From the NCBI GenBank assembly GCA_031372565.1, contig JANMLN010000091.1, positions 1 to 16,526 of the forward strand: 16,526 nt of DNA, read 5' to 3'. Shown one piece after another: positions 1 through 16,526 of this stretch; position 1 is the first letter of the stretch; each line of letters opens with the position of its first letter. The position numbers and the translations under genes are program-made. The notes under the pieces were generated by a model, which was not told the DNA's origin, did not search any database, and worked only from the letters and a program-made list of their open reading frames with translations. The stretch comes from Gemmatimonadota bacterium (GTDB lineage Bacteria; Gemmatimonadota; Gemmatimonadetes; Gemmatimonadales; Gemmatimonadaceae).

Positions 1-192
1 CCCCCCGGCGTGGCGCGCCGCCTGCGCCGCCGTGTCGGCGCGCTGGTCGGACACGGCGCGCCCGGCCCCGCGCGCGCCCCCGCGCGCGGCCACGGGGGTC
101 GCGCCGGGCGCCTGCGCCCACAGCTTGAGGCCGGCGCTGGCCCCGAGAAGCAGTCCCTTCACGATCCGTCGCAGCACGGTGCCGACGATCAT
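1..192 (-). CDS. Probable P-ring chaperone FlgA, N-terminal fragment running off the window edge
   Basis: Not in the ORF track. The ATG at 192 overlaps the flgG stop (ATGA) and the frame stays open to position 1: MIVGTVLRRIVKGLLLGASAGLKLWAQAPGATPVAARGGARGA... This has a signal-peptide-like start, and PVAARxxARG resembles the start of a SAF domain. Position after flgF-flgG is typical for flgA. Confidence 0.5.
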   Translation of the reverse strand, partial: MIVGTVLRRIVKGLLLGASAGLKLWAQAPGATPVAARGGARGAGRAVSDQRADTAAQAARHAGG

Positions 193-2768: not shown

Positions 2769-2783
2769 CGACGCGAACCCGTC

Positions 2784-2808
2784 TAACTCGTTGTCAGATA
2801 TCGACTTC
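2784..2808. promoter_or_regulatory. IHF-like element upstream of the fliA2 promoter
   Basis: TAACTCGTTG-TCAGA-TATCGACTTC, starting 16 nt from the -24 box. The second half is degenerate. Confidence 0.45.
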
Positions 2809-3012
2809 CAAGCTCATCACCCAGCGGAAGAATCGTCCCACTCGCTGCCCCAGGGAGGCAGAAGCTGCCGAGTGAGGCACGTCCTGCCGCCCGTGTCGCG
2901 TGAGGACCATCGTGACGAGATCCTGCGAGAGGCGCGTCCGGCGCGCGATCTGGACGACGTTGTTGCCGCGCCGGGCGAGCGTGAGTACTTGCAGCTCGGG
3001 GGTCGGCCTCAC
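2794..3012 (-). CDS. Small putative helix-turn-helix protein (72 aa)
   Basis: GTG overlaps the fliA1 stop (GTGA) with a GGGAGG SD. VLTLARRGNNVVQIARRTRLSQDLVTMVL fits an HTH pattern. Confidence 0.7.
   Translation of the reverse strand: MRPTPELQVLTLARRGNNVVQIARRTRLSQDLVTMVLTRHGRQDVPHSAASASLGQRVGRFFRWVMSLEVDI
2856..2872. promoter_or_regulatory. Putative sigma54-activator enhancer dyad (fliA2), inside the HTH ORF
   Basis: AGGCA-GAAGC-TGCCG-AG, centred 95 nt from the -24 box. A TGCCC half-site (2846-2850) lies 20 nt nearer the promoter. Confidence 0.6.
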
Positions 3013-3773
3013 GCGACCTCCCGCCGCATCGGTGCCAACTGCGTCTTGAGGCGCGAGAGCGCCTTGGTGCGGATCTGCGAGACACGCGACTCGGTGAGGC
3101 CGAGTACCGTCGCGATCTCGTGCAGCTTGAGCTCCTCGTAGTAGTACAGCGAGAGGACGGTCCGCTCCTGCGACTTGAGACCGGCAATCGCATCGCGGAG
3201 CAGGGCGACTTCCTGTTCGTTGTTGATCTTCGCTTCGACGTCGTCGTCCGGAGTTCCCGCGATCAGGTCGCCCGGTGCGTAGCCCTCCTCCTCGTCCTCG
3301 TGGCGTGCGCGGCGATCGATCGAGACATGATGCGATCCTTCGAGGTCGCCCTGCCAGCGCCAGAGCGTCGGCAGGTCGATGTTCAACCGTTCGGCGATCT
3401 CCTTGTCATTGGGCACACGGCCGAGCTCCTTGGCGAGCGCGTCACGCGCGCCACCGATGTCGCGCGCCTTGCGCCGCACCGAGCGCGGCACGTGATCCTG
3501 GCGACGGAGCTCGTCGAGAATCGAACCGCGAATGCGCGGTGCGGCAAAGGTCGAGAACTGCAGGCCGCGGCTGGCGTCGAAGTTCTCGAGCGCACCGACG
3601 AGTCCGAGCGTTCCGGAGCTGACGAGTTCGTCGAACTCCGCTTCATCGGCGAGACCGGCCGCGAGCTGCCGCGCCACGAAGTGCACGAGACCGACGTGGG
3701 CGTCGAGCAGCTCCTGACGGGCGGACGGATCGCCGGCGGCGTAGCGGTTCCAGAGGGCAGTGTGATCATTCAT
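3009..3773 (-). CDS. fliA: Flagellar sigma factor FliA (sigma28), first paralog (254 aa)
   Basis: FDASRGLQFSTFA.PRIRGSILDELR.QD.VPRSVR and canonical LYYYEEL.L.EI..VLGLTESRVSQI. Follows flhF-flhG with an ATGA overlap. Confidence 0.95.
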   Translation of the reverse strand: MNDHTALWNRYAAGDPSARQELLDAHVGLVHFVARQLAAGLADEAEFDELVSSGTLGLVGALENFDASRGLQFSTFAAPRIRGSILDELRRQDHVPRSVRRKARDIGGARDALAKELGRVPNDKEIAERLNIDLPTLWRWQGDLEGSHHVSIDRRARHEDEEEGYAPGDLIAGTPDDDVEAKINNEQEVALLRDAIAGLKSQERTVLSLYYYEELKLHEIATVLGLTESRVSQIRTKALSRLKTQLAPMRREVA

Positions 3774-4645
3774 GCAGCGGGTCTCCCGGAGGGGCGGTAG
3801 GGCGCCATGGAGCGGCGCGCGTCACGGTCGAGTTCAGCGAGGAGGCGTCCGGCGAGGGCGTCGAGTGCCATCGCGGCGCGGGTGCCGCCAGTCGCGGCGG
3901 GAAAGGGAGTGCCGGCGGCAATGGCCGCCTGCAGCGTGTCATCGGTTGGGATGGCGCCGCCGAACCCGATGGTGCGGCCAAGAAAGCGTCCGGCGGCGCC
4001 CTGCACTTCGGCGAACGCGTCGCGCGCCTTCTCTTCGATGGTGCGCGTGAGCACCAGCTCGATCGGTGCCCCCGGCCAGGTGAGGTGAATCCCCTTCACC
4101 ATGGCGTACGCGGCGGCCACGCTCGCGGGCTCCGCGTCCGAGGTGATGAGGCACTTGCGCAACCCGTTGAGTCCGGCGGCGATCACCGCATCGATGCGCG
4201 AACCAGCGTCGATGACCACGACGTCGTAGCTGCGATACACCGGCGCGAGCCGCCGGAAGACGGATCGCCGCTCGGCGGGCGCGAAGGGCATGCCGAGTGC
4301 ACCGTCCATGGACTGACCGCTCCCGCCCGGCAGCAGGTGCAGCGTGTCGCCGAGCGCGAGCACGACGGATGCGGGATCGCCACCGCCCGGCTTGAGCGCG
4401 CCGATGCCCGACGGGGCGACCACGCCGAAGCGGTGATGGTGCGTGCCGTTGGCCTCGTCGGCATCGACGAGCAGGGTACGCCGACCCTCGGCTGCCGCGG
4501 TGCAGGCAATCCCTGCGGCGAGCGTGGAGGTGCCGGTACCGCCGCGTGCGCCGGCGATGACGAGCACGCGATCATCGCTCGCGCGCCACGGGTCGGCGGT
4601 TCGCGTGCCGACGAAGGCGCGCAGCTGTTCAGTCTGGGAGATCAT
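3770..4645 (-). CDS. flhG: FlhG/FleN (MinD/ParA-like) protein with degenerate Walker A (291 aa; start corrected to 4645)
   Basis: MinD-type motifs TLLVDAD, LHLLPGGSG, YDVVVIDAG, EPASVAAAYAMVK and GAIPTD. Lies between flhF and fliA; ATG overlaps the flhF stop. Confidence 0.85.
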   Translation of the reverse strand: MISQTEQLRAFVGTRTADPWRASDDRVLVIAGARGGTGTSTLAAGIACTAAAEGRRTLLVDADEANGTHHHRFGVVAPSGIGALKPGGGDPASVVLALGDTLHLLPGGSGQSMDGALGMPFAPAERRSVFRRLAPVYRSYDVVVIDAGSRIDAVIAAGLNGLRKCLITSDAEPASVAAAYAMVKGIHLTWPGAPIELVLTRTIEEKARDAFAEVQGAAGRFLGRTIGFGGAIPTDDTLQAAIAAGTPFPAATGGTRAAMALDALAGRLLAELDRDARRSMAPYRPSGRPAA

Positions 4646-5475
4646 GCGGAGACCGCGTAGGCTGGCGCGACGCCGAGGGCGCCAAGCACCTTGGGCGCGG
4701 CGTCGCGGAGGTCGGTCGGGATGTCCTGCCCATCGGTGACCCAGCGTGCAGGCAGGTCGATCGAGGAGGTCAGGCGCGCGATGGTCGCGTCGGTCGGCAC
4801 TTCGTCGAGCTTGGTGACGAGCGCGTGCGTGACGCCCAGCGGGGTGAAGCTCTCGCGCGCCGTGGCGGCCAGGTCGAGGCGCCACGAGGCGGGAATGCAG
4901 AGGTGTACCTCGTCGGGGCGCAGCTGCCGCAGCGCGGCGCGCCAGGTGCCGGCGTCGTTGGTGGTGCGCGGGCCGCGCCCCGGCGTGTCGACGAGAATGA
5001 CGTCGCAGTCGGCGAGGCGACGGAGCGCATCGTCGATCTCGCTCGGATCGTAGATGCACTCGCACGGGAGGCCGGCAGCGGCGGCGTATGCCTCCAACTG
5101 TTCGACGGCGCCGGCGCGATAGGTGTCGAGCGTGAGGAGGCCGGCGCGCCGACGCCCGAAGGCGTCCGGGTTGACGGCCAGCTTGGCGATCGTGGTGGTC
5201 TTGCCGGCGCCGGTCGGGCCGACCAGTGCGACGATGAGTGGGCGCGCCTTCGCGCGCTGGCGCACGCCAACCGCACGCACGCGCGGTTGCGCCGGCGAAA
5301 GCAATTCGCGGAAGCGGGCCACCTCGTTGGCGGTGGTGGCCGCCACTTCGACGCGTGGCATGCCGTGCTCGCGCACGACACGCGAGTGCGCGATCATCGC
5401 GTCGTCGCCGAGTGCGCGTCGCGCCGCCCAGCTGACGGACGCGAGGTCGGGTCCGCTAAAGGTCCTAAGCTGCAT
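4642..5475 (-). CDS. flhF: SRP-type GTPase FlhF, unusually short (277 aa; start corrected to 5475)
   Basis: FlhF N-terminus MQLRTFSG.D........RRALGDDAMIAHSR. G1 GPTGAGKTTT, G2 DTYRAGA, G3 DTPGR, G4 TKLDE, G5 GQDIP. Confidence 0.93.
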   Translation of the reverse strand: MQLRTFSGPDLASVSWAARRALGDDAMIAHSRVVREHGMPRVEVAATTANEVARFRELLSPAQPRVRAVGVRQRAKARPLIVALVGPTGAGKTTTIAKLAVNPDAFGRRRAGLLTLDTYRAGAVEQLEAYAAAAGLPCECIYDPSEIDDALRRLADCDVILVDTPGRGPRTTNDAGTWRAALRQLRPDEVHLCIPASWRLDLAATARESFTPLGVTHALVTKLDEVPTDATIARLTSSIDLPARWVTDGQDIPTDLRDAAPKVLGALGVAPAYAVSA

Positions 5476-7564
5476 ACGGCATCTCCCAGGTGGCGGTCGG
5501 GGTGAGGGTGATCGTGGTGGGGAGTTCGGCGAACGAGACGACGGGGAGCGCCGGCATGACGGGCTCGACGAGACGACGGATGCCGGTGCGGAGCGCGGGC
5601 GGAACCACGAGTGGCAGCGGCCGGACATCGGCGCCCATGCTGGTCATGCGCTGCAGTTCACGCAGCAGGCCGGCGAGTTGATCCGGCGTCAGCAGGGACC
5701 CGTGGCCGCCGGCGCGCGGCGCGAAGAGCATCATGAGCGAGGCCTCGAGGCGCGCGCCGAGCGTGACGGCCTGGATGGCGCCCGATTCATCCATGAGCGT
5801 GCGAGCGATGACGTTGGCCAGCGCGCGCCGGACATGCTCGGTGAGCGCTTCGAGATCCTTCACATGATCGGCGGCGTCGCCGAGCGCTTCGAGAATGGTG
5901 ACCAGGTCGCGGATCGGGATGCGCTCGCGCAGGAGGCGCTGCAGCACGCGGTGCAGCGTGCCGAGCGAGACCTTGACGGGCACGACTTCCTCGACGAGCG
6001 CGGGATGCGTCGGCTTGAGCGTATCGACCATCGCCTGCACGTCCTGTCGACCGAGCAGTTCGGCGGCATTGGCCTTGACGGTTTCCATCAGGTGCGTGGC
6101 GAGCATCGTGCCGGGCTCGACCACCATGTAGCCGAGCGAGGAGGCATCGGAGCGGCGGGCGGGCGCGATCCAGCGCGCAGGCAGCCCGAATGACGGGTCG
6201 GAGCCCTCCATGCCATCGATGGGCGCCATGGCCGTACCGGTATCGAGCGCGAGGAGCATGCGCGGCATCGCCTCGCCGCGTGCGACTTCGGAGCCACGCA
6301 GGCGAATCACGTACTCGTTGGCCGGCAGGCGTACGTCATCGCGAATGCGGATGGGCGGCACGAGGATGCCGAGGTCGACGGCCGCCTGCTTGCGCATCAG
6401 ACCGATGCGCTCGAGCAGGTCGCCACCCATGGTCTCGTCGACGAGCGGCACGAGGCCGTAACCGACCAGCAGTTCGATCGGATCGAGTTGCAGGAGGTCG
6501 GCCACCGGGTTGGCGTTCAACGGGGCAGCTTCGGTGGCGGTCGCGGTCGCGCTGATCGGCGAGGCGTCGCGTTCACGTGCTGTCGTCTGGCGAACTGCGG
6601 CCGTGCGCGCCGCGAAGGCGAGCACGCCCGCGAGCGCGATGAAGGGGAGCGCGGGCAGCCCCGGTACGAGCGCAAACGAGCCGAGGACGCCCGATGCCAC
6701 CCAGAGCGCCTTGGGCTGCGCGGAGAGCTGCGTGGCGACCACGGCGCCGATGCGCGCACCACCCGCGGCCTGCGTGACCATGAGGCCCGCTGCGACCGAG
6801 ACGATGAGCGCCGGGATCTGTGCAACCAGGCCTTCACCGACCGTGAGGATCGTGTAGGTCGACGCCGCCTGCGAGAGGTCGAGCCCGCGCTGCAGGACGC
6901 CCACGACGATGCCGCCGATGATGTTGATGCCCGTGATCAGCAGGCCGGCGATCGCGTCGCCCTTCACGAACTTGGACGCGCCGTCCATCGCGCCGTAGAA
7001 GTCGGCCGATTGGGCGATGACTGCGCGCCGCTGGCGGGCCGTGGCTTCGTCGATGAGGCCCGCACCGAGATCGGCATCGATCGCCATCTGCTTGCCGGGC
7101 ATCGCGTCGAGCGTGAAGCGCGCCGCCACTTCGGCCACGCGCCCGGCGCCCTTGGTGATGACGATGAAGTTGATGCCGACGAGGATCAGGAAGATCACGA
7201 CGCCGACGACGTAGTTGCCGCCGATCACGAACTGGCCGAACGCCTGGATCACCTGGCCCGCGTGCCCTTCGCTCAGGATGAGCCTCGTGCTCGCGACGTT
7301 GAGCGCGAGGCGGAACAGCGTGAGGATCAGCAGCAGCGCGGGAAAGGAGCTGAACTCGAGCGGATCGGTGGTCTGGAGCGCGGACAGCAGCACGACGAGC
7401 GAGATGCCGATCGACGCCGCCAGGCACAGGTCGAGCAGGATCGGCGGCAGGGGCACGATGAGCAGCGCGATGACGAGCACGACCGCGATCATCATCCCGA
7501 TCTCGTTCGACTTGCTCCCCCGGTCGGCTGCGCCCATGGGGAAGGCGATCGCGGGTGCGGTCAT
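5465..7564 (-). CDS. flhA: Flagellar export gate protein FlhA (699 aa; start corrected to 7564)
   Basis: FHIPEP motif RVAEVAARFTLDAMPGKQMAIDADL, FYGAMDGASKFVKGDAIAG and VGYGLVPL. ATGA overlap with flhB, plus a GGAGG SD. Confidence 0.98.
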   Translation of the reverse strand: MTAPAIAFPMGAADRGSKSNEIGMMIAVVLVIALLIVPLPPILLDLCLAASIGISLVVLLSALQTTDPLEFSSFPALLLILTLFRLALNVASTRLILSEGHAGQVIQAFGQFVIGGNYVVGVVIFLILVGINFIVITKGAGRVAEVAARFTLDAMPGKQMAIDADLGAGLIDEATARQRRAVIAQSADFYGAMDGASKFVKGDAIAGLLITGINIIGGIVVGVLQRGLDLSQAASTYTILTVGEGLVAQIPALIVSVAAGLMVTQAAGGARIGAVVATQLSAQPKALWVASGVLGSFALVPGLPALPFIALAGVLAFAARTAAVRQTTARERDASPISATATATEAAPLNANPVADLLQLDPIELLVGYGLVPLVDETMGGDLLERIGLMRKQAAVDLGILVPPIRIRDDVRLPANEYVIRLRGSEVARGEAMPRMLLALDTGTAMAPIDGMEGSDPSFGLPARWIAPARRSDASSLGYMVVEPGTMLATHLMETVKANAAELLGRQDVQAMVDTLKPTHPALVEEVVPVKVSLGTLHRVLQRLLRERIPIRDLVTILEALGDAADHVKDLEALTEHVRRALANVIARTLMDESGAIQAVTLGARLEASLMMLFAPRAGGHGSLLTPDQLAGLLRELQRMTSMGADVRPLPLVVPPALRTGIRRLVEPVMPALPVVSFAELPTTITLTPTATWEMPYAA

Positions 7565-8649
7565 GACACGCCTCCGGCGAAGGCGCCACGACGGCGACGC
7601 TGGCGGAGCACGAAGGCAAGCACTTCGGCGACGGCCGCGTACAGCTCGGCGGGAATCATCATGCCGACCTTCGCCGAACGGATGAGCGCGCGCGCGAGCG
7701 GCTTGTTCTGGATCACGGGCACCTTGTGCTCGTAGGCGAGTTGCTTGATCCGCTCTGCGATCAGGCGCTCGCCCATGGCGAGCACGATCGGTGCGGGGGC
7801 GAACGTCGGGTCGTACTTGATCGCGATCGCTATGTGGGTCGGATTGACGAGCACGAGATCCGCCTTCTTGACGTCGGCGAACATCTGGCGGCGGATGCGC
7901 GCGCGTGCGACCTGCCGCATGCGCCCCTTCACCGCCGGATCGCCCTCGCTCTGCTTCATCTCCTGACGCACTTCTTCCTTCGTCATCTTGAGCGACTGCG
8001 TCAGCTGCCACTTCTGGTACATCCAGTCGGCGAGCGCGAGCGCCAGGAAGGCCGCACCGGCCGAGCCCAGCAGGGCCACGGAGTGCCGCTGCGCTGCGTC
8101 GAGCAGCGCCAGCGGCGACCGCACGCCCAGGTCCACGAGATCGGGCCACGCCTTCTCGAGCACGCGCCAGACGGCCCATCCGACAATGCCGAGCTTGACG
8201 AGCGCCTTGCCCAGTTCCGCCAGGCCGCCGAGTCCGAAGACGCGCTTCGCGTTCGAGAGCGGATTGAGGCGCGAGAAGTCCGGCGTGATCGGCTTGGCGG
8301 AGAGCACCCCCTGCCCTTGCACGCCCGCGACCGCGAACGCGGCCAGCGCGGTGCCGGCCGCGAGCGCGAGCACGATGGTCATCAGATCGACCGTCGCGCC
8401 CTTGAGCAGTTCGACCGCCACGCCTTCGCTGCCCGCCGCCTGGCCGAGCGCTCCCAGTTCGCCTGCCATCGATGTGGCGAGACGGCTACCAGCGGCCGGA
8501 GCAGCGAGCTTGAGCGTGGCCGCGGCCGTGAGCAGCGCGGCTGCGGTGCCGAGCTCTGGCGAGCGCGCCACACGCCCGTCGCGCTTCGCCTCATCGAGGC
8601 GCTTCTGCGTCGGTTCTTCGGAGCGTTCGAGATCGGAGCCGTCAGCCAC
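7561..8649 (-). CDS. flhB: Export switch protein FlhB (362 aa)
   Basis: ERSEEPTQKRL.EA...G.VARS.EL, KMTKEEVRQE.KQSEGDP, NPTH autocleavage motif and PLARAL. Confidence 0.97.
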   Translation of the reverse strand: MADGSDLERSEEPTQKRLDEAKRDGRVARSPELGTAAALLTAAATLKLAAPAAGSRLATSMAGELGALGQAAGSEGVAVELLKGATVDLMTIVLALAAGTALAAFAVAGVQGQGVLSAKPITPDFSRLNPLSNAKRVFGLGGLAELGKALVKLGIVGWAVWRVLEKAWPDLVDLGVRSPLALLDAAQRHSVALLGSAGAAFLALALADWMYQKWQLTQSLKMTKEEVRQEMKQSEGDPAVKGRMRQVARARIRRQMFADVKKADLVLVNPTHIAIAIKYDPTFAPAPIVLAMGERLIAERIKQLAYEHKVPVIQNKPLARALIRSAKVGMMIPAELYAAVAEVLAFVLRQRRRRGAFAGGVS

Positions 8650-9447: not shown

Positions 9448-9713
9448 GCGGCGAGACTCGGCAGGGACCGGAAGAGCTCGGCGGTGAAGTTCACCGCGAG
9501 CTGCAGCATCCATGGCAGGCCGATCAGGAAGACGAGGCCGACCGCCACGAGCTTGGGCACGAAGGCGAGCGTCTGCTCCTGGATCTGCGTGACCGCCTGC
9601 AGCACGCTGATCAGCAGGCCGACGACGAGCGCCACGAGCAGCAGCGGCCCGCCGAGCGCGAGCGCCATCATCATGGCGCGGCGCGCCAGGTCGACGACGA
9701 CGAGATCGGTCAT
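9444..9713 (-). CDS. fliQ: Export apparatus protein FliQ (89 aa)
   Basis: VGLLISVLQAVTQIQEQTLAFVPKL signature. Confidence 0.98.
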   Translation of the reverse strand: MTDLVVVDLARRAMMMALALGGPLLLVALVVGLLISVLQAVTQIQEQTLAFVPKLVAVGLVFLIGLPWMLQLAVNFTAELFRSLPSLAA

Positions 9714-11086
9714 GGACGGAACCCCTGCACGAGCCCCTGGATGACGAGCGTCCAGCCGTCGACCATCACGAAGAGCAGCAGCTTGAACGGCAGCGCGATC
9801 ATGGCCGGTGGCACCATCATCATGCCCATCGACATGAGCACCGATGCCACGACGACGTCGATCACGATGAAGGGGAGGAAGAGGGCGAAGCCGATCTGAA
9901 ACGCGGTGCGCAGTTCGCTGGTGACGAACGCCGACGTGAGCACGATCAGCGGCACCTCGTCTGGCGTGCGCGCCTGTGGCTGCCGGCTCAGGTTCATGAA
10001 CGAGGCGAGGTCCGACTCACGCACCTGCTTGAGCATGAAGGCGCGGAACGGCTTCGCGCCCTCCTGCAGCATGGCCGTCTGTTCCATCTTGCCATCCATC
10101 CACGGCTTGAGCGCCGACTCGTGCACGCGCTCGAGGGTGGGCGACATCACGAAGCCGGTGAGCAGCAGCGCGAGCCCGGCAACCAGCTGGTTAGGCGGCG
10201 CATTCTGCGCGCCGATGGCCTGGCGCAGGAACGAGAGCACGATGAGGATGCGGGTGAACCCCGTCATCATGAGCACGAGCATGGGGAGCAGCGTCAGCAA
10301 CCCCATCATCACGACGACGCCGACCGTGCCCGACAGGCGAAGTCCGCCCGCACCCGCATCGCCGACCTTGAGATCGATCGTCGGGGCGAGCTTCGGGAAC
10401 ACGCTGTCGATGCGCGCGACCGCGACGGTCGTCGCCGCCGCCGGAGTCGCGACCGGCGCGGCCGTGGCGGCGGCCTTGCCCCTCGTCGCGCTCTTCCTGG
10501 CCGCACCCTTCGGGGCGTTCTTTGCCGCGCTCTGTACCGCGTTCTGTACCGCGCTCTTCGCGGGCGCCTTGGCCACGGCCTTCGCGGCGGCCGCCTTGGC
10601 GGTGCGCGTCGCCGCGGCGACCGTTGCCGCTGGCGTGATGGTGGGTGTCGTCGTCGCGGCCTGTGCATTGACGCGAGCGCCGAGCGCAACCGACAGCACG
10701 AGTACGCCGACCATTCCGCCGACGGCCTTGCGGAACTGTCCGGCAAAGTTGCCGGGGAGGGCGGTCCAACCAGTTGTCGCTGGCGCATCGGCGGTAACCG
10801 CCGGCAGTTCGGTCGAGTGGCCCGCGATCCCTTCGTCTGCGTCGAGTTCGAGCAGCGTGTGCACGCCACCCTCACCCATGCTCACCGCCACCCGACGCGT
10901 GCCGATGCGCACGACCGCGATCCCCTGGCGTGGGCCGAGCGGCATGCGCGCGAGCACCTCGAGGGTGAGCGCGCCCGCGCCGCTGGTGCGCGGCACGAGG
11001 CGGCGCAGCCACTTGAGGGTCAGCACGAGGAGCGCCAGCACGATGGCCAGCACACCAAGCACGCCGATGAAGGAGGCGACAGGCAC
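9710..11086 (-). CDS. fliP: FliO-FliP fusion protein (458 aa)
   Basis: Residues 1-82 are FliO-like (TM plus EVLARMPLGPRQGIAVVRIG.RR). Residues ~250-458 are the FliP core (MMTGFTRILIVL, PPNQL, AFVTSELRTAFQIGF, GMMMVPP.MIALPFKLLLFV.VDGW). One open frame. Confidence 0.93.
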   Translation of the reverse strand: MPVASFIGVLGVLAIVLALLVLTLKWLRRLVPRTSGAGALTLEVLARMPLGPRQGIAVVRIGTRRVAVSMGEGGVHTLLELDADEGIAGHSTELPAVTADAPATTGWTALPGNFAGQFRKAVGGMVGVLVLSVALGARVNAQAATTTPTITPAATVAAATRTAKAAAAKAVAKAPAKSAVQNAVQSAAKNAPKGAARKSATRGKAAATAAPVATPAAATTVAVARIDSVFPKLAPTIDLKVGDAGAGGLRLSGTVGVVVMMGLLTLLPMLVLMMTGFTRILIVLSFLRQAIGAQNAPPNQLVAGLALLLTGFVMSPTLERVHESALKPWMDGKMEQTAMLQEGAKPFRAFMLKQVRESDLASFMNLSRQPQARTPDEVPLIVLTSAFVTSELRTAFQIGFALFLPFIVIDVVVASVLMSMGMMMVPPAMIALPFKLLLFVMVDGWTLVIQGLVQGFRP

Positions 11087-13233: not shown

Positions 13234-14556
13234 CTACCGCTTGATCGACATCAGGTCCTGCAGCATCTCGTCGGCCGCGGAGATCACCTTGCCGTTGGCC
13301 TGGAAGCCGCGCTGCGCGACGATCATGGAGGTGAACTCGGCCGCGAGGTCGACGTTCGACATCTCGAGCGCGCCCGAGGTGAGCGTGGAGGTTGAACCGG
13401 CGAGCGCATAGCCCAGCACGGGGCCTCCCGAGTTCGACGACTCCTGATACATGTTGTCGCCGACGCGGAGCAGGCCGGCCGGATTGTTGAAATCACCCAG
13501 CACGATCTGGGCGAGCGGAATGCTCACGCCGTTGCTGAAGATGCCGGTGATCGTGCCCGTGCGATCGATCGAGAAGTCCTGCAGCGTGCCTGACGTGTAG
13601 CCGTTCTGGTCGCGCGCGACGGCCGTGGTGGGCGACGCGAACTGCGTCACGCCGCTGAAGCCAGCCCCCGGATCAATGGTGATCGACACGGGTCCGGCAC
13701 CCGGCGGCGCGAAGGTGATCGTCTGCAACGTGGGCGACTGGAGGGTGCCGTCGGACGCGAAGGTGAACGTCCCGCTGCCCGTGATCGAGGCGGGCGCCAC
13801 ACCGGCGGCGACGAGCGTGCTCGGATCGATTTCCCACTGCCAGGTGTTCGTTGCCGTCTTGCGCATGTAGACGTGCACGTTGTACGGCGTGCCCAGCGAA
13901 TCGAACGCGGTGATCGAGGTCTCCGTCCAGGACTTCGCATTCGCCACGGTGCCGCGCGTGCCGCTGTTGAAGCCGGACGTGAGCGGGCCGGCGCCGTCCG
14001 GGTCGGTCGTGTCGAACACCGGCGCGGAGGCATCGAGATTGCCGCCGAAGGCCATCTGCGTGGTCTCCTTGGCGGCGGTCTTCTGGCCGAAGGGGAGCTT
14101 GATATCGGTGACGCCGTCCTGGAACACGCCGTTCACCGCCACGCGCCCCTGCACCACGAAGCCGTTTGCCGGCACGACGAGTTGGCCGTTCGCGTCCACC
14201 TGGAAGTTGCCGGCGCGCGAGTAGAACGACTGTGCGCCCTTGCGTGCGACGAAGAAGGCGTTGCCGGAGATCGCGACATCGGTCTTGAGGCCGGTCGTTT
14301 CGAGATTGCCCTGCGACATGAGCGTGTCGACCGAGCCGATCTGCATGCCGAGGCCGACCTGGATCGGATTGATGCCGCCTTGGTCGCCGGGCGGACGGCT
14401 GCCGCCCTGCAGCAACTGGGCGAACCCTTCCTTGAACGTCACGCGGCCGGACTTGAAGGCCGTCGAGTTCACGTTCGAGATGTTGTTGCCGATGACGTCG
14501 AGACGGATCTGGTGATTGCGGAGGCCGGAAACGCCGGAAAACAGTGAGCGCAGCAT
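13234..14556 (-). CDS. flgE: Flagellar hook protein FlgE (440 aa)
   Basis: MLRSLFSGVSGL.NHQ..LDVIGNNISNVN..AFK, YSRAGNF, FDSLG and LEMSNVDLA.EF..MIVAQRGFQAN. GAGG SD. Confidence 0.97.
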   Translation of the reverse strand: MLRSLFSGVSGLRNHQIRLDVIGNNISNVNSTAFKSGRVTFKEGFAQLLQGGSRPPGDQGGINPIQVGLGMQIGSVDTLMSQGNLETTGLKTDVAISGNAFFVARKGAQSFYSRAGNFQVDANGQLVVPANGFVVQGRVAVNGVFQDGVTDIKLPFGQKTAAKETTQMAFGGNLDASAPVFDTTDPDGAGPLTSGFNSGTRGTVANAKSWTETSITAFDSLGTPYNVHVYMRKTATNTWQWEIDPSTLVAAGVAPASITGSGTFTFASDGTLQSPTLQTITFAPPGAGPVSITIDPGAGFSGVTQFASPTTAVARDQNGYTSGTLQDFSIDRTGTITGIFSNGVSIPLAQIVLGDFNNPAGLLRVGDNMYQESSNSGGPVLGYALAGSTSTLTSGALEMSNVDLAAEFTSMIVAQRGFQANGKVISAADEMLQDLMSIKR

Positions 14557-14577: not shown

Positions 14578-15249
14578 TCAGTTGGCGGCGTCGACGGACG
14601 TCACACCGGAGAGCGGATAGGTGCGCGTGCCGCTGCGCAGGACGAGCCCGTTGGGTCCGAACTGCACGCCGTCTACATGCGCGGTGGCGAGCGTCGCGGG
14701 GGCGCTGGTGGCACCAGCCGCGTTGGTGAAGGCGAGCGAGATGGTGTACGTGCCGTTCGAGAGACCGTCGGCGAGATCACGGATGTCGAGCGCATGCCGT
14801 CCGGCAGCCACCCGGCCCATGTCCTGCGTGCGCACCACGCGGCCGGACGCATCCACCAGGTTCACGACCAGCGTGCCCGCACCCGGCAGCTCGGTGGCGA
14901 ACGGCGGGATGGCGTCGCCACCCACGGTCACGGTGTTGGTCGACACCGACACGTTCTTGCCGATCAGCCCGATGGCAGCCGAATTCTCGAGCGCCGTGGC
15001 GAGCCCGGCGTTGGTGCCGCCCTGCCCAGCGAGCGTGCTGTTGATGTTCATCAGCTGCTCGACCGAGGAGAACTGTGCGAGCTGCGTGGCCATCTGCGTC
15101 CCGTCCTGCGGGTTGAGCGGATCCTGGTGCTTCATCTGCGCGACGAGCAGCTTGACGAAATCGTCCTTGTCGAGCGACACGCCGCTCGTGAACGACGAAC
15201 TGGTGGGCGCGCTCGTGGACGACATCGTCCGGTGGACAGCGACGGTCAT
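14578..15249 (-). CDS. flgD: Hook-capping protein FlgD (223 aa)
   Basis: LDKDDFVKLLVAQMKHQDPLNP.D......QLAQFSSVEQL signature; ATGA overlap with the upstream gene. Confidence 0.96.
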   Translation of the reverse strand: MTVAVHRTMSSTSAPTSSSFTSGVSLDKDDFVKLLVAQMKHQDPLNPQDGTQMATQLAQFSSVEQLMNINSTLAGQGGTNAGLATALENSAAIGLIGKNVSVSTNTVTVGGDAIPPFATELPGAGTLVVNLVDASGRVVRTQDMGRVAAGRHALDIRDLADGLSNGTYTISLAFTNAAGATSAPATLATAHVDGVQFGPNGLVLRSGTRTYPLSGVTSVDAAN

Positions 15250-16526
15250 CGGGGTTCTCCCTGCTCCTTGCGGGAGCGGTGGCGGTTCTGGTCCTGCGGC
15301 GTACGCGAGGGATCGTCCTGGCGCGGGGCCGTGCTTCCACCGCGCTCCGACGCCGGCGCGGCCGCTCGCGTGAGCTCGGTGGCGGAGCCCGCGGCGGCAT
15401 TGGCCACCGTCAGGGCGTCGGGGGCAAGACCGCGCTGCTCGAGCGCGCGGGCGAGTTCCATCACGCGGCCCGCAGCCTGTGCGGCATCGCCCGACGCGCC
15501 GAACATCATCTGCGCTCCGACGCGCGCACCGCGGACATCCACGCGAATGCGATCGATGCCACCGGCATCGTCGTCGACGGTCAGCATCATCCGCGACACC
15601 GGTTGCCGATCGCGCGACTCGATGAGCGACTGGATCTCCTCGGCGCGCATCGCGGTCGCAGCGCCACGCACGGCCTGCGTGGCCACCCCGCCGTGACTCG
15701 TTGCGGCGCCGGCTGCGCCGAGGGCTCCGGCCAGCGCGTTGGACGTCATGGCACTCACGGTACCGCGCGCAGACGCGCCACCCGATGCTCCGAGTCCGGC
15801 GAGGGCGCGCGCACGCGCGGTGTTGCTCCCCTGCTCGCCGGCGCCACGCTCCGAGAACGCGCCCTCGCTCGTGACAGCGCCGCGCGCCGAGGCGGCGAAC
15901 GCGGCGGCCACGGCGAGTGCCTGCGGCGACGGCGCGCCCGGACGCTGGTTCATGATCGCGGCGTGCGTCACCGGCGCCGCTGACGTTGCCGGACCGGCCG
16001 CCGACGCGTTGGCATGCGCCAGGTGCGGCGCATCGACCGGTGTCGGGGCCGCCGACTTGGCGTCCGCCGCAGACATGGACGAGGCCGTCGGTGCGACGTC
16101 GGCCACGCGCGCGACCTGCGCGACCCGGGCGACCGATGCCACCTGCGCCACCTGCGCCACCTGCGTCGCGCGCGCAGTCCGCGCCTCACCCGCCTCCACG
16201 ACGATCTGCGCATCCGTGATGGTGGCCATCTGTCCGAGCGTTGCGAGCGCGTCGTCCGCGCGGAGTTCGAGATGCCCCGGGTCGCGCGCGCCAAGCGTGG
16301 CGAGCCCCTCTTCGGCGGCGATCTTGCCGAGCAACGCGTAGCCGTCGTGGTTCTGGAACGTCCCGTCTACCTGCACATCGACGGCGAGGCCATCGAGATG
16401 CCGCGACTGGCGCGTCCAGGTCACGATCGGACCGGATGTCGTGCGTCCCTGCGCGTAGAGTGCGTCCTGCCGCCCCTGGCTGCGCGCGGTTTCGGTGATC
16501 GTCACCGTGTGGCCGGCCTCGGCCAT
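15246..16526 (-). CDS. FliK-like hook-length control protein with an M15-family peptidase domain (at least 426 aa, probably 5'-truncated by the window)
   Basis: Residues 1-88: ETARSQGRQDALYAQGRT..GPIVTWT..SRH..GLAVD...DPGHLE (M15). Then a long Ala/Gly/Ser/Thr/Pro-rich linker. Residues ~293-375 show a FliK_C-like beta-beta-beta-alpha-beta pattern ending EL.RALEQRGL....LTV, followed by a polar tail. Translationally coupled to flgD, the usual fliK position. Confidence 0.75.
   Translation of the reverse strand: MAEAGHTVTITETARSQGRQDALYAQGRTTSGPIVTWTRQSRHLDGLAVDVQVDGTFQNHDGYALLGKIAAEEGLATLGARDPGHLELRADDALATLGQMATITDAQIVVEAGEARTARATQVAQVAQVASVARVAQVARVADVAPTASSMSAADAKSAAPTPVDAPHLAHANASAAGPATSAAPVTHAAIMNQRPGAPSPQALAVAAAFAASARGAVTSEGAFSERGAGEQGSNTARARALAGLGASGGASARGTVSAMTSNALAGALGAAGAATSHGGVATQAVRGAATAMRAEEIQSLIESRDRQPVSRMMLTVDDDAGGIDRIRVDVRGARVGAQMMFGASGDAAQAAGRVMELARALEQRGLAPDALTVANAAAGSATELTRAAAPASERGGSTAPRQDDPSRTPQDQNRHRSRKEQGEPR
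16092..16163 (-). repeat. Eight imperfect 9-bp coding repeats (xVA)8
   Basis: Encodes QVA-QVA-QVA-SVA-RVA-QVA-RVA-DVA. The + strand shows repeated (gc)cacctgc/gacctgc units. Confidence 0.85.

Follow-up and report, generated by a model that had tools for sequence, protein, structure and literature searches.

Passage of the flagellum through the cell wall is solved differently from lineage to lineage, by a glucosaminidase on FlgJ or by recruited lytic transglycosylases, and all the described flagellar solutions that were found act on the glycan strand. Here, we analyzed a 16,526-nucleotide stretch of DNA from a Gemmatimonadota bacterium (GenBank assembly GCA_031372565.1, contig JANMLN010000091.1; hereafter, the window). 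An open reading frame (ORF) at the fliK position of its flagellar gene cluster encodes an M15-type zinc peptidase domain in one chain with a C-terminal domain that is assigned, through its relatives, to the FliK type. We call this gene fliK-M15. The fusion suggests an undescribed way of cutting the wall hole for the flagellum. On balance, we lean towards the reading that the gene would be the FliK of this lineage with a catalytically intact M15 domain, exported by the flagellar type III apparatus and cutting the wall at the growing rod in the manner of an L-alanyl-D-glutamate endopeptidase.

Dual-domain FlgJ of beta- and gamma-proteobacteria is a secreted rod cap, and its C-terminal domain, a GH73 glucosaminidase, makes the hole in the peptidoglycan (PMC8517470; PMC6403190). 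In principle, fliK-M15 would work alike, with a wall-degrading domain on a secreted flagellar protein of the rod stage. However, the carrier in FlgJ is the rod cap and the glycosidase acts on glycan, whereas in fliK-M15 the carrier would be the ruler and switch protein and the enzyme a zinc peptidase on stem peptides. Single-domain FlgJ recruits SltF-type lytic transglycosylases or Borrelia BB0259, which open the wall locally and act on glycan (PMC8517470). The task of local wall opening would be the same, but fliK-M15 is a predicted peptidase without a signal peptide. SltF-type flagellar wall enzymes are Sec-exported.

The canonical FliK of Salmonella and E. coli (PF02120) and fliK-M15 occupy a common slot of the Bacillus-type order, with fliJ before it and flgD-flgE after it. 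They would also share a layout: an N-terminal region without a signal, which is presumably disordered, a low-complexity linker, a T3S4-type C-terminal domain and a polar tail. In contrast, only fliK-M15 has an enzymatic domain of about 125 amino acids and a (V-A-x)n repeat. E. coli FliK has 375 amino acids, whereas the fliK-M15 ORFs of 68 related loci closed at both ends encode 478-1074 amino acids when counted from the first start codon, which makes these lengths upper bounds. The C-terminal domain of the window copy has diverged so far that neither Pfam nor hhalign with E. coli FliK recognises it.

The M15 L-alanyl-D-glutamate endopeptidases (Ply500, LysB4, LysECD7, Serratia ChiX and the CwlK type of B. 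subtilis) have the same LAS fold and the same motifs, LYAQGRT, S-x-H-x-x-G-x-A-x-D and D-x-x-H-x-E. These enzymes stand alone or are joined to a wall-binding domain, whereas the fliK-M15 copy is embedded in a predicted flagellar export substrate, does not have the GLxWGGxW motif and stays below the gathering scores of the Pfam M15 models.

The tape-measure protein pb2 of phage T5 carries a muralytic metallopeptidase motif (PMC10038345). The pb2 module is cleaved off, whereas nothing suggests cleavage in fliK-M15. The tape measure of mycobacteriophage TM4 reportedly carries a peptidoglycan hydrolase motif. The likeness of both phage proteins to fliK-M15 is a functional analogy, in which a ruler passing through a narrow tube brings a peptidoglycan-degrading module to the wall. 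However, the machine is different, and no homology beyond the M15 fold was detectable.

In a full-text literature search, which did not cover subscription-only articles, neither a FliK with a peptidase domain nor flagellar assembly in Gemmatimonadota was described. This agrees with a preliminary description of the window, made from the sequence alone, which had stated that no characterised example was known.

The fliK-M15 gene in the window

The gene and its two neighbors are arranged as follows.

15246..16526, - strand: 3' part of the fliK-M15 gene, 1281 nucleotides, 426 codons and a TGA stop; the 5' end lies beyond the window
15246..15249, - strand: ATGA overlap of the fliK-M15 stop (TGA, 15246-15248) with the flgD start (ATG, 15247-15249), indicating translational coupling
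14578..15249, - strand: flgD, hook cap (Pfam FlgD 2.1e-23, FlgD_ig and FLgD_tudor)
13234..14556, - strand: flgE, hook (Pfam Flg_bbr_C, FlgE_D2, LlgE_F_G_D1 and Flg_bb_rod)

The overlap and the presence of flgD and flgE on the same strand bear out the preliminary description, which had placed the ORF in the fliK slot and coupled it to flgD-flgE. A GGGAG sequence sits 7 nucleotides upstream of the flgD ATG (15247-15249). The GC content of the fliK-M15 ORF is 0.74.

After flgE, the - strand of the window carries fliL, fliM, fliN, fliO-fliP, fliQ, fliR, flhB, flhA and flhF in this order, followed by a MinD/ParA-like gene, two sigma-70-family genes, an flgF-like gene and flgG. This is the Bacillus/spirochaete-type operon order. 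The upstream side is visible in a related locus (L010), where the order is flgC-fliE-fliF-fliG-fliH-fliI-fliJ-(MgtE_N-like)-fliK-M15-flgD-flgE-fliL-fliM. The MgtE_N-like gene of L010 (8355-9053, + strand) encodes a membrane protein of 233 amino acids with a hydrophobic N-terminus and a weak MgtE_N match (E 5.5e-5). Its position in the gap between fliJ and fliK-M15 is that of ylxF in Bacillus.

An ATG stands at the very edge of the window (16524-16526). It aligned with an internal methionine of the relatives (...ARMEQAGHTV...) and with residue M48 of the Ply500 chain. Thus, judging from these alignments, the edge ATG is an internal methionine codon and not the true start, which lies further out, and the visible ORF is the 3' part of the gene. 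This part lacks the first 30-45 or so residues of the M15 domain, together with the entire N-terminal region. The preliminary description had called the M15 region N-terminal, and this point has to be corrected: the domain is internal in the full-length relatives, and it looks N-terminal because the window cuts the gene.

Full-length homologues show the complete architecture, which consists of a low-complexity N-terminal region, the M15 domain, the (V-A-x)n repeat, an Ala/Gly/Ser-rich linker, the FliK_C-type domain and a polar or basic tail (...RSR[KR]EQ...). The homologue set comprised 129 proteins at E<=0.001, of which the best 120 were listed. In the protein collection, where a length range of 234-746 amino acids was searched, the homologues have 368-746 amino acids.

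Identity of the M15 domain

16251..16526, - strand: M15 (LAS-fold) zinc peptidase domain, residues 1-92 of the visible ORF, assigned by PHROG, Ply500, the family profile and the model of a relative

The first 100 amino acids of the window protein by themselves matched four PHROG endolysin families, with E values from 4.5e-16 to 1.1e-7 (4.5e-16, 1.7e-10 and 2.4e-10 for the top three). Plain phmmer aligned the same segment with Ply500 (2vo9) at E 8.4e-5. When a profile of 79 homologous domains (alignment A2) was searched against PDB sequences, Ply500 (2e-12), LysB4 (6akv, 2.5e-12) and LysECD7 (8q2g, 0.0085) were the sole sequences at E<=0.01.

The fold was tested on the complete domain of L001 and not on the truncated window copy. 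L001 is the closest relative locus (61% identical), and its M15 domain is 74% identical to the part present in the window. The AlphaFold2 model of this domain reached a predicted local distance difference test score (pLDDT) of 93. In a Foldseek search of the PDB, 2vo9 was first (E=1.1e-7, template modelling score 0.64), followed by LysB4, LdcB, LysECD7, VanXY and ChiX, and all ten matches at E<=0.001 were M15 enzymes. Against BFVD, 19 matches at E<=0.001 were obtained, including 'L-alanoyl-D-glutamate peptidase' and 'Peptidase M15B'. These results, together with the motif conservation given below, support the earlier assignment to the M15 peptidases of the L-Ala-D-Glu endopeptidase type.

The BFVD matches include phage proteins of 550-1190 amino acids with an internal M15 domain (e.g. 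608, 792, 853, 1116 and 1131 amino acids). These may be tape-measure proteins or virion-associated lysins.

The nearest true stand-alone proteins, which were compared with embedded domains in alignment A4 (14 sequences), are 35-44% identical over the domain, have 105-146 amino acids and carry PF13539. One source gives several of them the name 'peptidoglycan L-alanyl-D-glutamate endopeptidase CwlK'. Across embedded and stand-alone members of A4, the invariant positions are R, Q, LYAQGRT, G-P-x-V-T, S-x-H, A-x-D and D-x-x-H-x-E. Seven shorter homologues (P0122-P0128; 156-244 amino acids, 56-74% identical to the M15 domain) were rejected as stand-alone enzymes, since they are probably fusion fragments from short contigs.

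Conservation of the active-site motifs

The three motifs of the domain lie in the window as follows.

16440..16460, - strand: LYAQGRT motif, residues 23-29, invariant in comparison with the stand-alone PF13539 proteins of A4
16377..16406, - strand: SRHLDGLAVD (S-x-H-x-x-G-x-A-x-D), residues 41-50, with H43 and D50 as predicted zinc ligands
16266..16283, - strand: DPGHLE (D-x-x-H), residues 82-87, with the predicted catalytic Asp and the third zinc ligand

Every residue that the preliminary description had listed (R15, LYAQGRT at 23-29, S41-x-H43, D50 and D82-P-G-H85) was found at its position. H43 and D50 align with the H and D of 'SNHNYGVAVD' in Ply500 and are invariant in A1, A2 and A4, A1 being an alignment of 30 full-length homologues with 32-66% identity to the window protein. 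The invariant residues of A1 were R15, R19, Q20, G27, R28, W37, T38, S41, H43, D50, D82, G84 and H85, with the same core in A2 and A4. Q26 was conserved in at least 90% of A1, and its equivalent was invariant in the other two alignments. The equivalents of H43, D50 and H85 bind zinc in the Ply500 and T5 endolysin structures. D82 is the predicted catalytic residue, and R15, R19, Q20, Q26-G27-R28 and W37 are predicted to lie on the substrate side.

The H...D...D-x-x-H set and D-x-G-H were intact in all of the 120 best homologues; the Glu two residues after the His was replaced by Gln in three of them. Among 106 further cluster representatives, the H...D...D-x-x-H motifs were intact in 105, and the Asp ligand was lost in one.

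Invariant columns of A1 fall almost wholly inside the M15 domain. Mean column identity reached 63% within the M15 domain, compared with 45% in the C-terminal domain and 27% over the entire protein. By this measure, the M15 module is the most constrained part of the protein, which argues for catalysis and not for a spacer role.

The C-terminal domain

15372..15671, - strand: FliK C-terminal/T3S4-type domain, residues 286-385, assigned by a hidden Markov model (HMM) of relatives and by Pfam in relatives
15249..15371, - strand: polar, basic C-terminal tail ending in RSRKEQGEPR, residues 386-426; an ending of the R-x-R-[KR]-E type recurs in A1

An HMM of the C-terminal domain was built from 47 more distant relatives, without the window and its three closest relatives. 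The window protein scored 86.3 bits against it, and the best of 1000 shuffled sequences scored 10.3 bits. PF02120 (Flg_hook) was matched at E<=0.01 by 41 of 51 aligned C-terminal domains (best 1.7e-8). With full-length ORFs, 44 of 67 reached E<=0.01 and four the gathering score, which was also reached by three of ten homologous proteins. The FliK_C assignment of the window copy is thus made through its relatives, as a matter of sequence comparison.

A search for relatives of the C-terminal domain without M15, made with the C-terminal 158 amino acids of homologue P0009, returned 17 matches, all of which bear M15 (5 new; 12 the query or found earlier); the search was word-limited. Membership of the FlgJ family was also considered and rejected, since no Pfam match to Rod_binding or Glucosaminidase was found in the window protein, in 10 homologues or in 67 relatives.

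Spread of the fusion

To survey the architecture, the pattern LGx[RK]DPGH[LVI]E was scanned over 185,579 species genomes. Of the 263 stretches that it matched, tblastn confirmed 209, and the analysis continued with the best 80 of these. All 80 loci are metagenome-assembled genomes with no cultured strain among them, so that binning errors are possible.

The M15 domain lay within a long ORF in 80/80 loci. Wherever tblastn detected the C-terminal domain (50 loci), it was in the M15 frame with no stop between; in the other 30 it was too divergent to be detected. The ORF ran off the contig in nine loci, and flgD was next on the same strand in all of the 71 that continue, with -30 to 204 nucleotides between the stop and the first aligned residue. 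The survey upstream of flgD, which the preliminary description had suggested, thus gave the fused form throughout. By record title, 75 of the 80 loci are Gemmatimonadota or taxa within this phylum; three are 'bacterium', one is Ca. Kuenenia and one is Planctomycetota.

A search of 1.84 billion representatives with a full-length profile gave 535 clusters (50% identity) at E<=1e-30, and the top 150 of these all have E<=3.2e-112 and 393-861 amino acids. Among look-alike clusters of the ESM Atlas, Gemmatimonadota were the commonest. The names given to homologues in databases ('FliK', 'M15 family metallopeptidase', 'YcbK/DUF882' and 'hypothetical') each denote at most one half of the protein.

These results bear on the explanation that a separate M15 peptidase and a fliK gene were joined by an assembly or frame error, or that no real gene underlies the ORF. 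In favor of this explanation, the window ends within the gene, the region is high in GC and has many spurious ORFs, and one locus (L045) has an in-frame stop within the M15 region. However, 80/80 independent loci from different assemblies are continuous, the 50 detectable C-terminal domains are all in frame, and the 535 clusters match the full-length profile. An assembly chimera was therefore rejected, and we regard an artefact as practically negligible. The fusion is a lineage-wide architecture.

Two of the loci are odd. L045, from a genome titled Planctomycetota, has the in-frame stop inside the M15 region at about 2149-2571. L031 is titled Ca. Kuenenia stuttgartiensis and has the same Gemmatimonas-like locus. 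Both are probably binning or sequencing problems.

The spread also bears on a possible role outside the cell. FliK would be freed into the medium after the hook crosses the outer membrane, and its M15 domain would be bacteriolytic against neighbors. Salmonella FliK is released to the supernatant, and export of non-flagellar proteins by the flagellar type III secretion system is known; moreover, phage endolysins are the nearest relatives of the domain. On the other hand, a near-universal fusion across the phylum, in a fixed slot and within one structural flagellar gene, fits housekeeping assembly better than use as a weapon. The neighborhood of fliK-M15 shows no evident immunity-like partner gene, and the peptidoglycan of diderm neighbors would be out of reach for the enzyme unaided. 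We consider such an exoenzyme very unlikely.

Lengths of the segments on both sides of the M15 domain

16089..16160, - strand: (V-A-x)8 repeat of period 3, residues 123-146, directly after the M15 domain
15672..16088, - strand: Ala/Gly/Ser-rich low-complexity linker, residues 147-285, with poorly conserved columns; its composition is taken from homologue P0002

The DNA under the (V-A-x)8 repeat is a 9-bp tandem repeat (Tandem Repeats Finder, 16109-16165, 6.3 copies). Relatives differ in copy number, and 114 of 120 homologues have at least four (V-A-x) triplets, with a maximum of 15.

The M15 domain has about 125 amino acids, corresponding to 14 kDa. In 213 homologues, the segment that follows the M15 domain and runs to the C-terminus had a median of 323 amino acids and a coefficient of variation of 0.15; it has 339 in the window protein. 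The region before the M15 domain has roughly 100-350 amino acids in relatives, with a median of 181 and a coefficient of variation of 0.40 in the same 213 homologues, a spread inflated by start-codon calls and partial ORFs. Because the length behind the enzyme is tight and the length before it is variable, these values hint at a length constraint that may apply solely to the part behind the enzyme.

Such a pattern would also fit a mainly structural M15 domain, that is, a knob that folds once it has left the channel, cannot slip back and serves the ruler as a ratchet, a distal stopper or a peptidoglycan-binding anchor, with catalysis dispensable. The tighter length behind the domain fits a ruler that is measured from the knob, and zinc ligands also stabilise a fold. 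However, the contrast between the two lengths is softened by the inflated spread on the N-terminal side. Furthermore, the invariance extends beyond the zinc ligands to D82, R15, R19, Q20, Q26-G27-R28 and W37 in 30-79 sequences, which is hard to explain without catalysis. We therefore regard a mainly structural role as distinctly improbable.

A hydrophobic stretch (KD15 >= 2.0) within the first 50 amino acids was found in only two of 217 homologues, and 198 of the 217 are without cysteine. In sequence, the N-termini of the homologues look unlike Sec substrates.

Proposed export and wall cutting

Salmonella FliK leaves the cell with its N-terminus leading, at intervals while the rod and hook are being built, and its T3S4 domain flips FlhB to late substrates, so that the export of early substrates ends. 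On this background, the following course is proposed for fliK-M15. It follows the preliminary description, which had suggested that FliK export through the growing rod and hook could deliver a stem-peptide cutter. On its N-terminal side, the M15 domain would have a disordered region for export and measurement, and on its C-terminal side the T3S4 switch domain. Because the protein has no Sec signal and the enzyme is embedded in an early flagellar export substrate, the flagellar type III apparatus would be its sole route to the peptidoglycan. As long as the rod has not passed the peptidoglycan, exported copies would come out unfolded at its tip in the periplasm. There, the M15 domain would fold, bind zinc and cut stem peptides, local cross-links would be severed, and the rod and hook could pass. 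The exit at the tip would keep delivery local. It would also be self-limiting, since the C-terminal domain of FliK turns the export gate to late substrates and thereby stops the export of FliK itself, and the supply would end with the completion of the hook. The FlgJ and T5/TM4 tape-measure precedents make delivery by export plausible.

If an active stem-peptide endopeptidase on FliK is true, wall passage would gain both a new carrier, the ruler, and a new chemistry, that of a peptidase. It would also mean that a folded zinc enzyme can thread the flagellar export channel within a protein that is usually called an intrinsically disordered ruler, and that the timing of an autolysin can be simple, with export ending when its own C-terminal domain flips the secretion switch.

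A version with two jobs is also conceivable, but we hold it to be rather unlikely. The protein would be a rod-stage wall drill whose supply is cut by its own T3S4 domain, which acts as a built-in timer for a potentially lethal autolysin. In addition, the folded knob would be unable to re-enter the channel, so that only the length-constrained segment of about 320 amino acids behind it, starting with the conserved (V-A-x)n repeat, would measure rod and hook. In that case, the enzymatic half of FlgJ would have been replaced in Gemmatimonadota, and the protein would be a 'knob-and-string' ruler, a convergent counterpart of the muralytic phage tape-measure proteins. A foldable domain in mid-ruler gives a handle on which part of FliK measures length, as different hook lengths are predicted when the whole chain measures and when only the part behind the knob does.

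Points that weigh against the proposed reading

Several results and assumptions weigh against a FliK-borne endopeptidase that opens the wall, and they concern both domains and the route.

M15 domain: With Pfam and NCBIfam, nothing was found on the whole window protein at E<=1. Its N-terminal 100 amino acids scored 13.3 bits with VanY (cut-off 25) and 13.7 bits with Peptidase_M15_3 (cut-off 23.2), both at E of about 0.07. Among 67 full-length relatives, M15-type Pfam models reached E<=0.01 in nine and the cut-off in none. One homologue (P0096) passes the Peptidase_M15_3 cut-off (24.3 vs 23.2). The HMM scan for VanY and M15 that the preliminary description had proposed thus gave a divided answer: the window stays below the curated Pfam cut-offs, and the PHROG match and the profile matches to Ply500 and LysB4 support the family.

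The FliK-embedded domains have GLxTLG just before D-x-x-H (residues of about 74-81 in the window), in contrast to the GLxWGGxW loop of the stand-alone PF13539 CwlK-like enzymes in A4. Because this loop is missing, the activity or specificity of the embedded domain may differ. LD- and DD-carboxypeptidases (LdcB, VanXY) are also among the top fold matches, and the bond that is cleaved is therefore not fixed by the fold.

In an alternative with the same protein and the same export, the enzyme trims. It would act as an LD- or DD-carboxypeptidase, or remodel stem peptides at the basal body (e.g. for P-ring or stator anchoring), and make no hole for the rod. In agreement with this, the fold matches include LdcB (4jid, 4mph and 4oxd) and the VanXY/VanY DD-peptidases at E 8e-5 to 1e-3, the weak Pfam matches are to VanY, and the WGGxW loop of CwlK-like enzymes is missing. 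However, in sequence as in fold, every one of the best matches is an L-Ala-D-Glu endopeptidase (Ply500, LysB4, LysECD7 and ChiX), and LYAQGRT...SxHxxGxAxD...DxxH is identical to that of the PF13539 proteins that one source names CwlK. Trimming at the basal body therefore seems unlikely to us, and cutting of the wall by an endopeptidase is kept as the preferred reading.

C-terminal domain: PF02120 did not match the window protein, its C-terminal 150 amino acids or C-terminal pieces. The model of the C-terminal domain has an alpha-beta3-alpha-beta order and a low pLDDT of 69.8. Its top PDB match was the T3S4 domain of PscP (5cuk, E=0.024), Salmonella FliK_C (2rrl) ranked 18 (E=0.14), and nothing reached E<=0.001. 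At most, the model suggests a T3S4 fold. A profile of the domain gave chance-level matches to PDB sequences and no FliK. With hhalign, the alignment of the domain and E. coli FliK gave a probability of 0.1, which is not significant; the 14 aligned columns lie in the C-terminal half of E. coli FliK and were not counted as evidence. Thus, the FliK_C-like domain of the preliminary description stands through the relatives (HMM score and PF02120 matches) and not through a Pfam match in the window copy. Structure prediction, which had been proposed as a check, came out well for the M15 domain (2vo9 first) and not significant for the C-terminal one.

Route and need: A FlgJ with a hydrolase domain, or an enzyme like SltF, may be encoded in these genomes as well, and M15 would then be redundant for wall penetration. 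By tblastn, E. coli FlgJ, FlgH, FlgI and FlgA gave no match in the window and the 80 loci (1.2 Mb); these loci extend over +/-10 kb, stop before the expected flgH/flgI and are uninformative on the genomes. FlgG, the positive control in the same search, gave 165 high-scoring segment pairs. Moreover, a zinc enzyme of 14 kDa would need unfolding to pass the channel, and the presence of FliK in the periplasm at the rod stage is assumed by analogy with Salmonella.

Other genes in the window

An ORF at 1-192 (- strand), whose ATG overlaps the flgG stop, runs off the window start; 64 amino acids are visible, and no Pfam match was found in them. The two sigma-70-family genes (1884-2717 and 3009-3773, both - strand) have regions 2, 3 and 4 and are FliA/sigma-28-like. 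They lie between the flhG-like and flgF-like genes. An ORF of 136 amino acids (2783-3193) stands between them and overlaps the second; it has no Pfam match.

The listed FlhA ORF (5465-8179, - strand) has 904 amino acids, with FHIPEP from residue 236, and overlaps flhB (7561-8649, - strand) by about 620 nucleotides. Translation of flhA probably begins at a start codon inside this ORF. The ORFs of FlhF (4642-5628) and the MinD-like protein (3770-5065) overlap likewise.

At 9710-11086 (- strand), FliO (Pfam, residues 36-121) and FliP (260-452) are encoded in one ORF of 458 amino acids, with an Ala/Lys-rich spacer. Similarly long fliO-fliP frames were found at the same place in L010 (15525-17147) and in L022 (15911-17704). 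From these sequences, it looks like a conserved FliO-FliP fusion.

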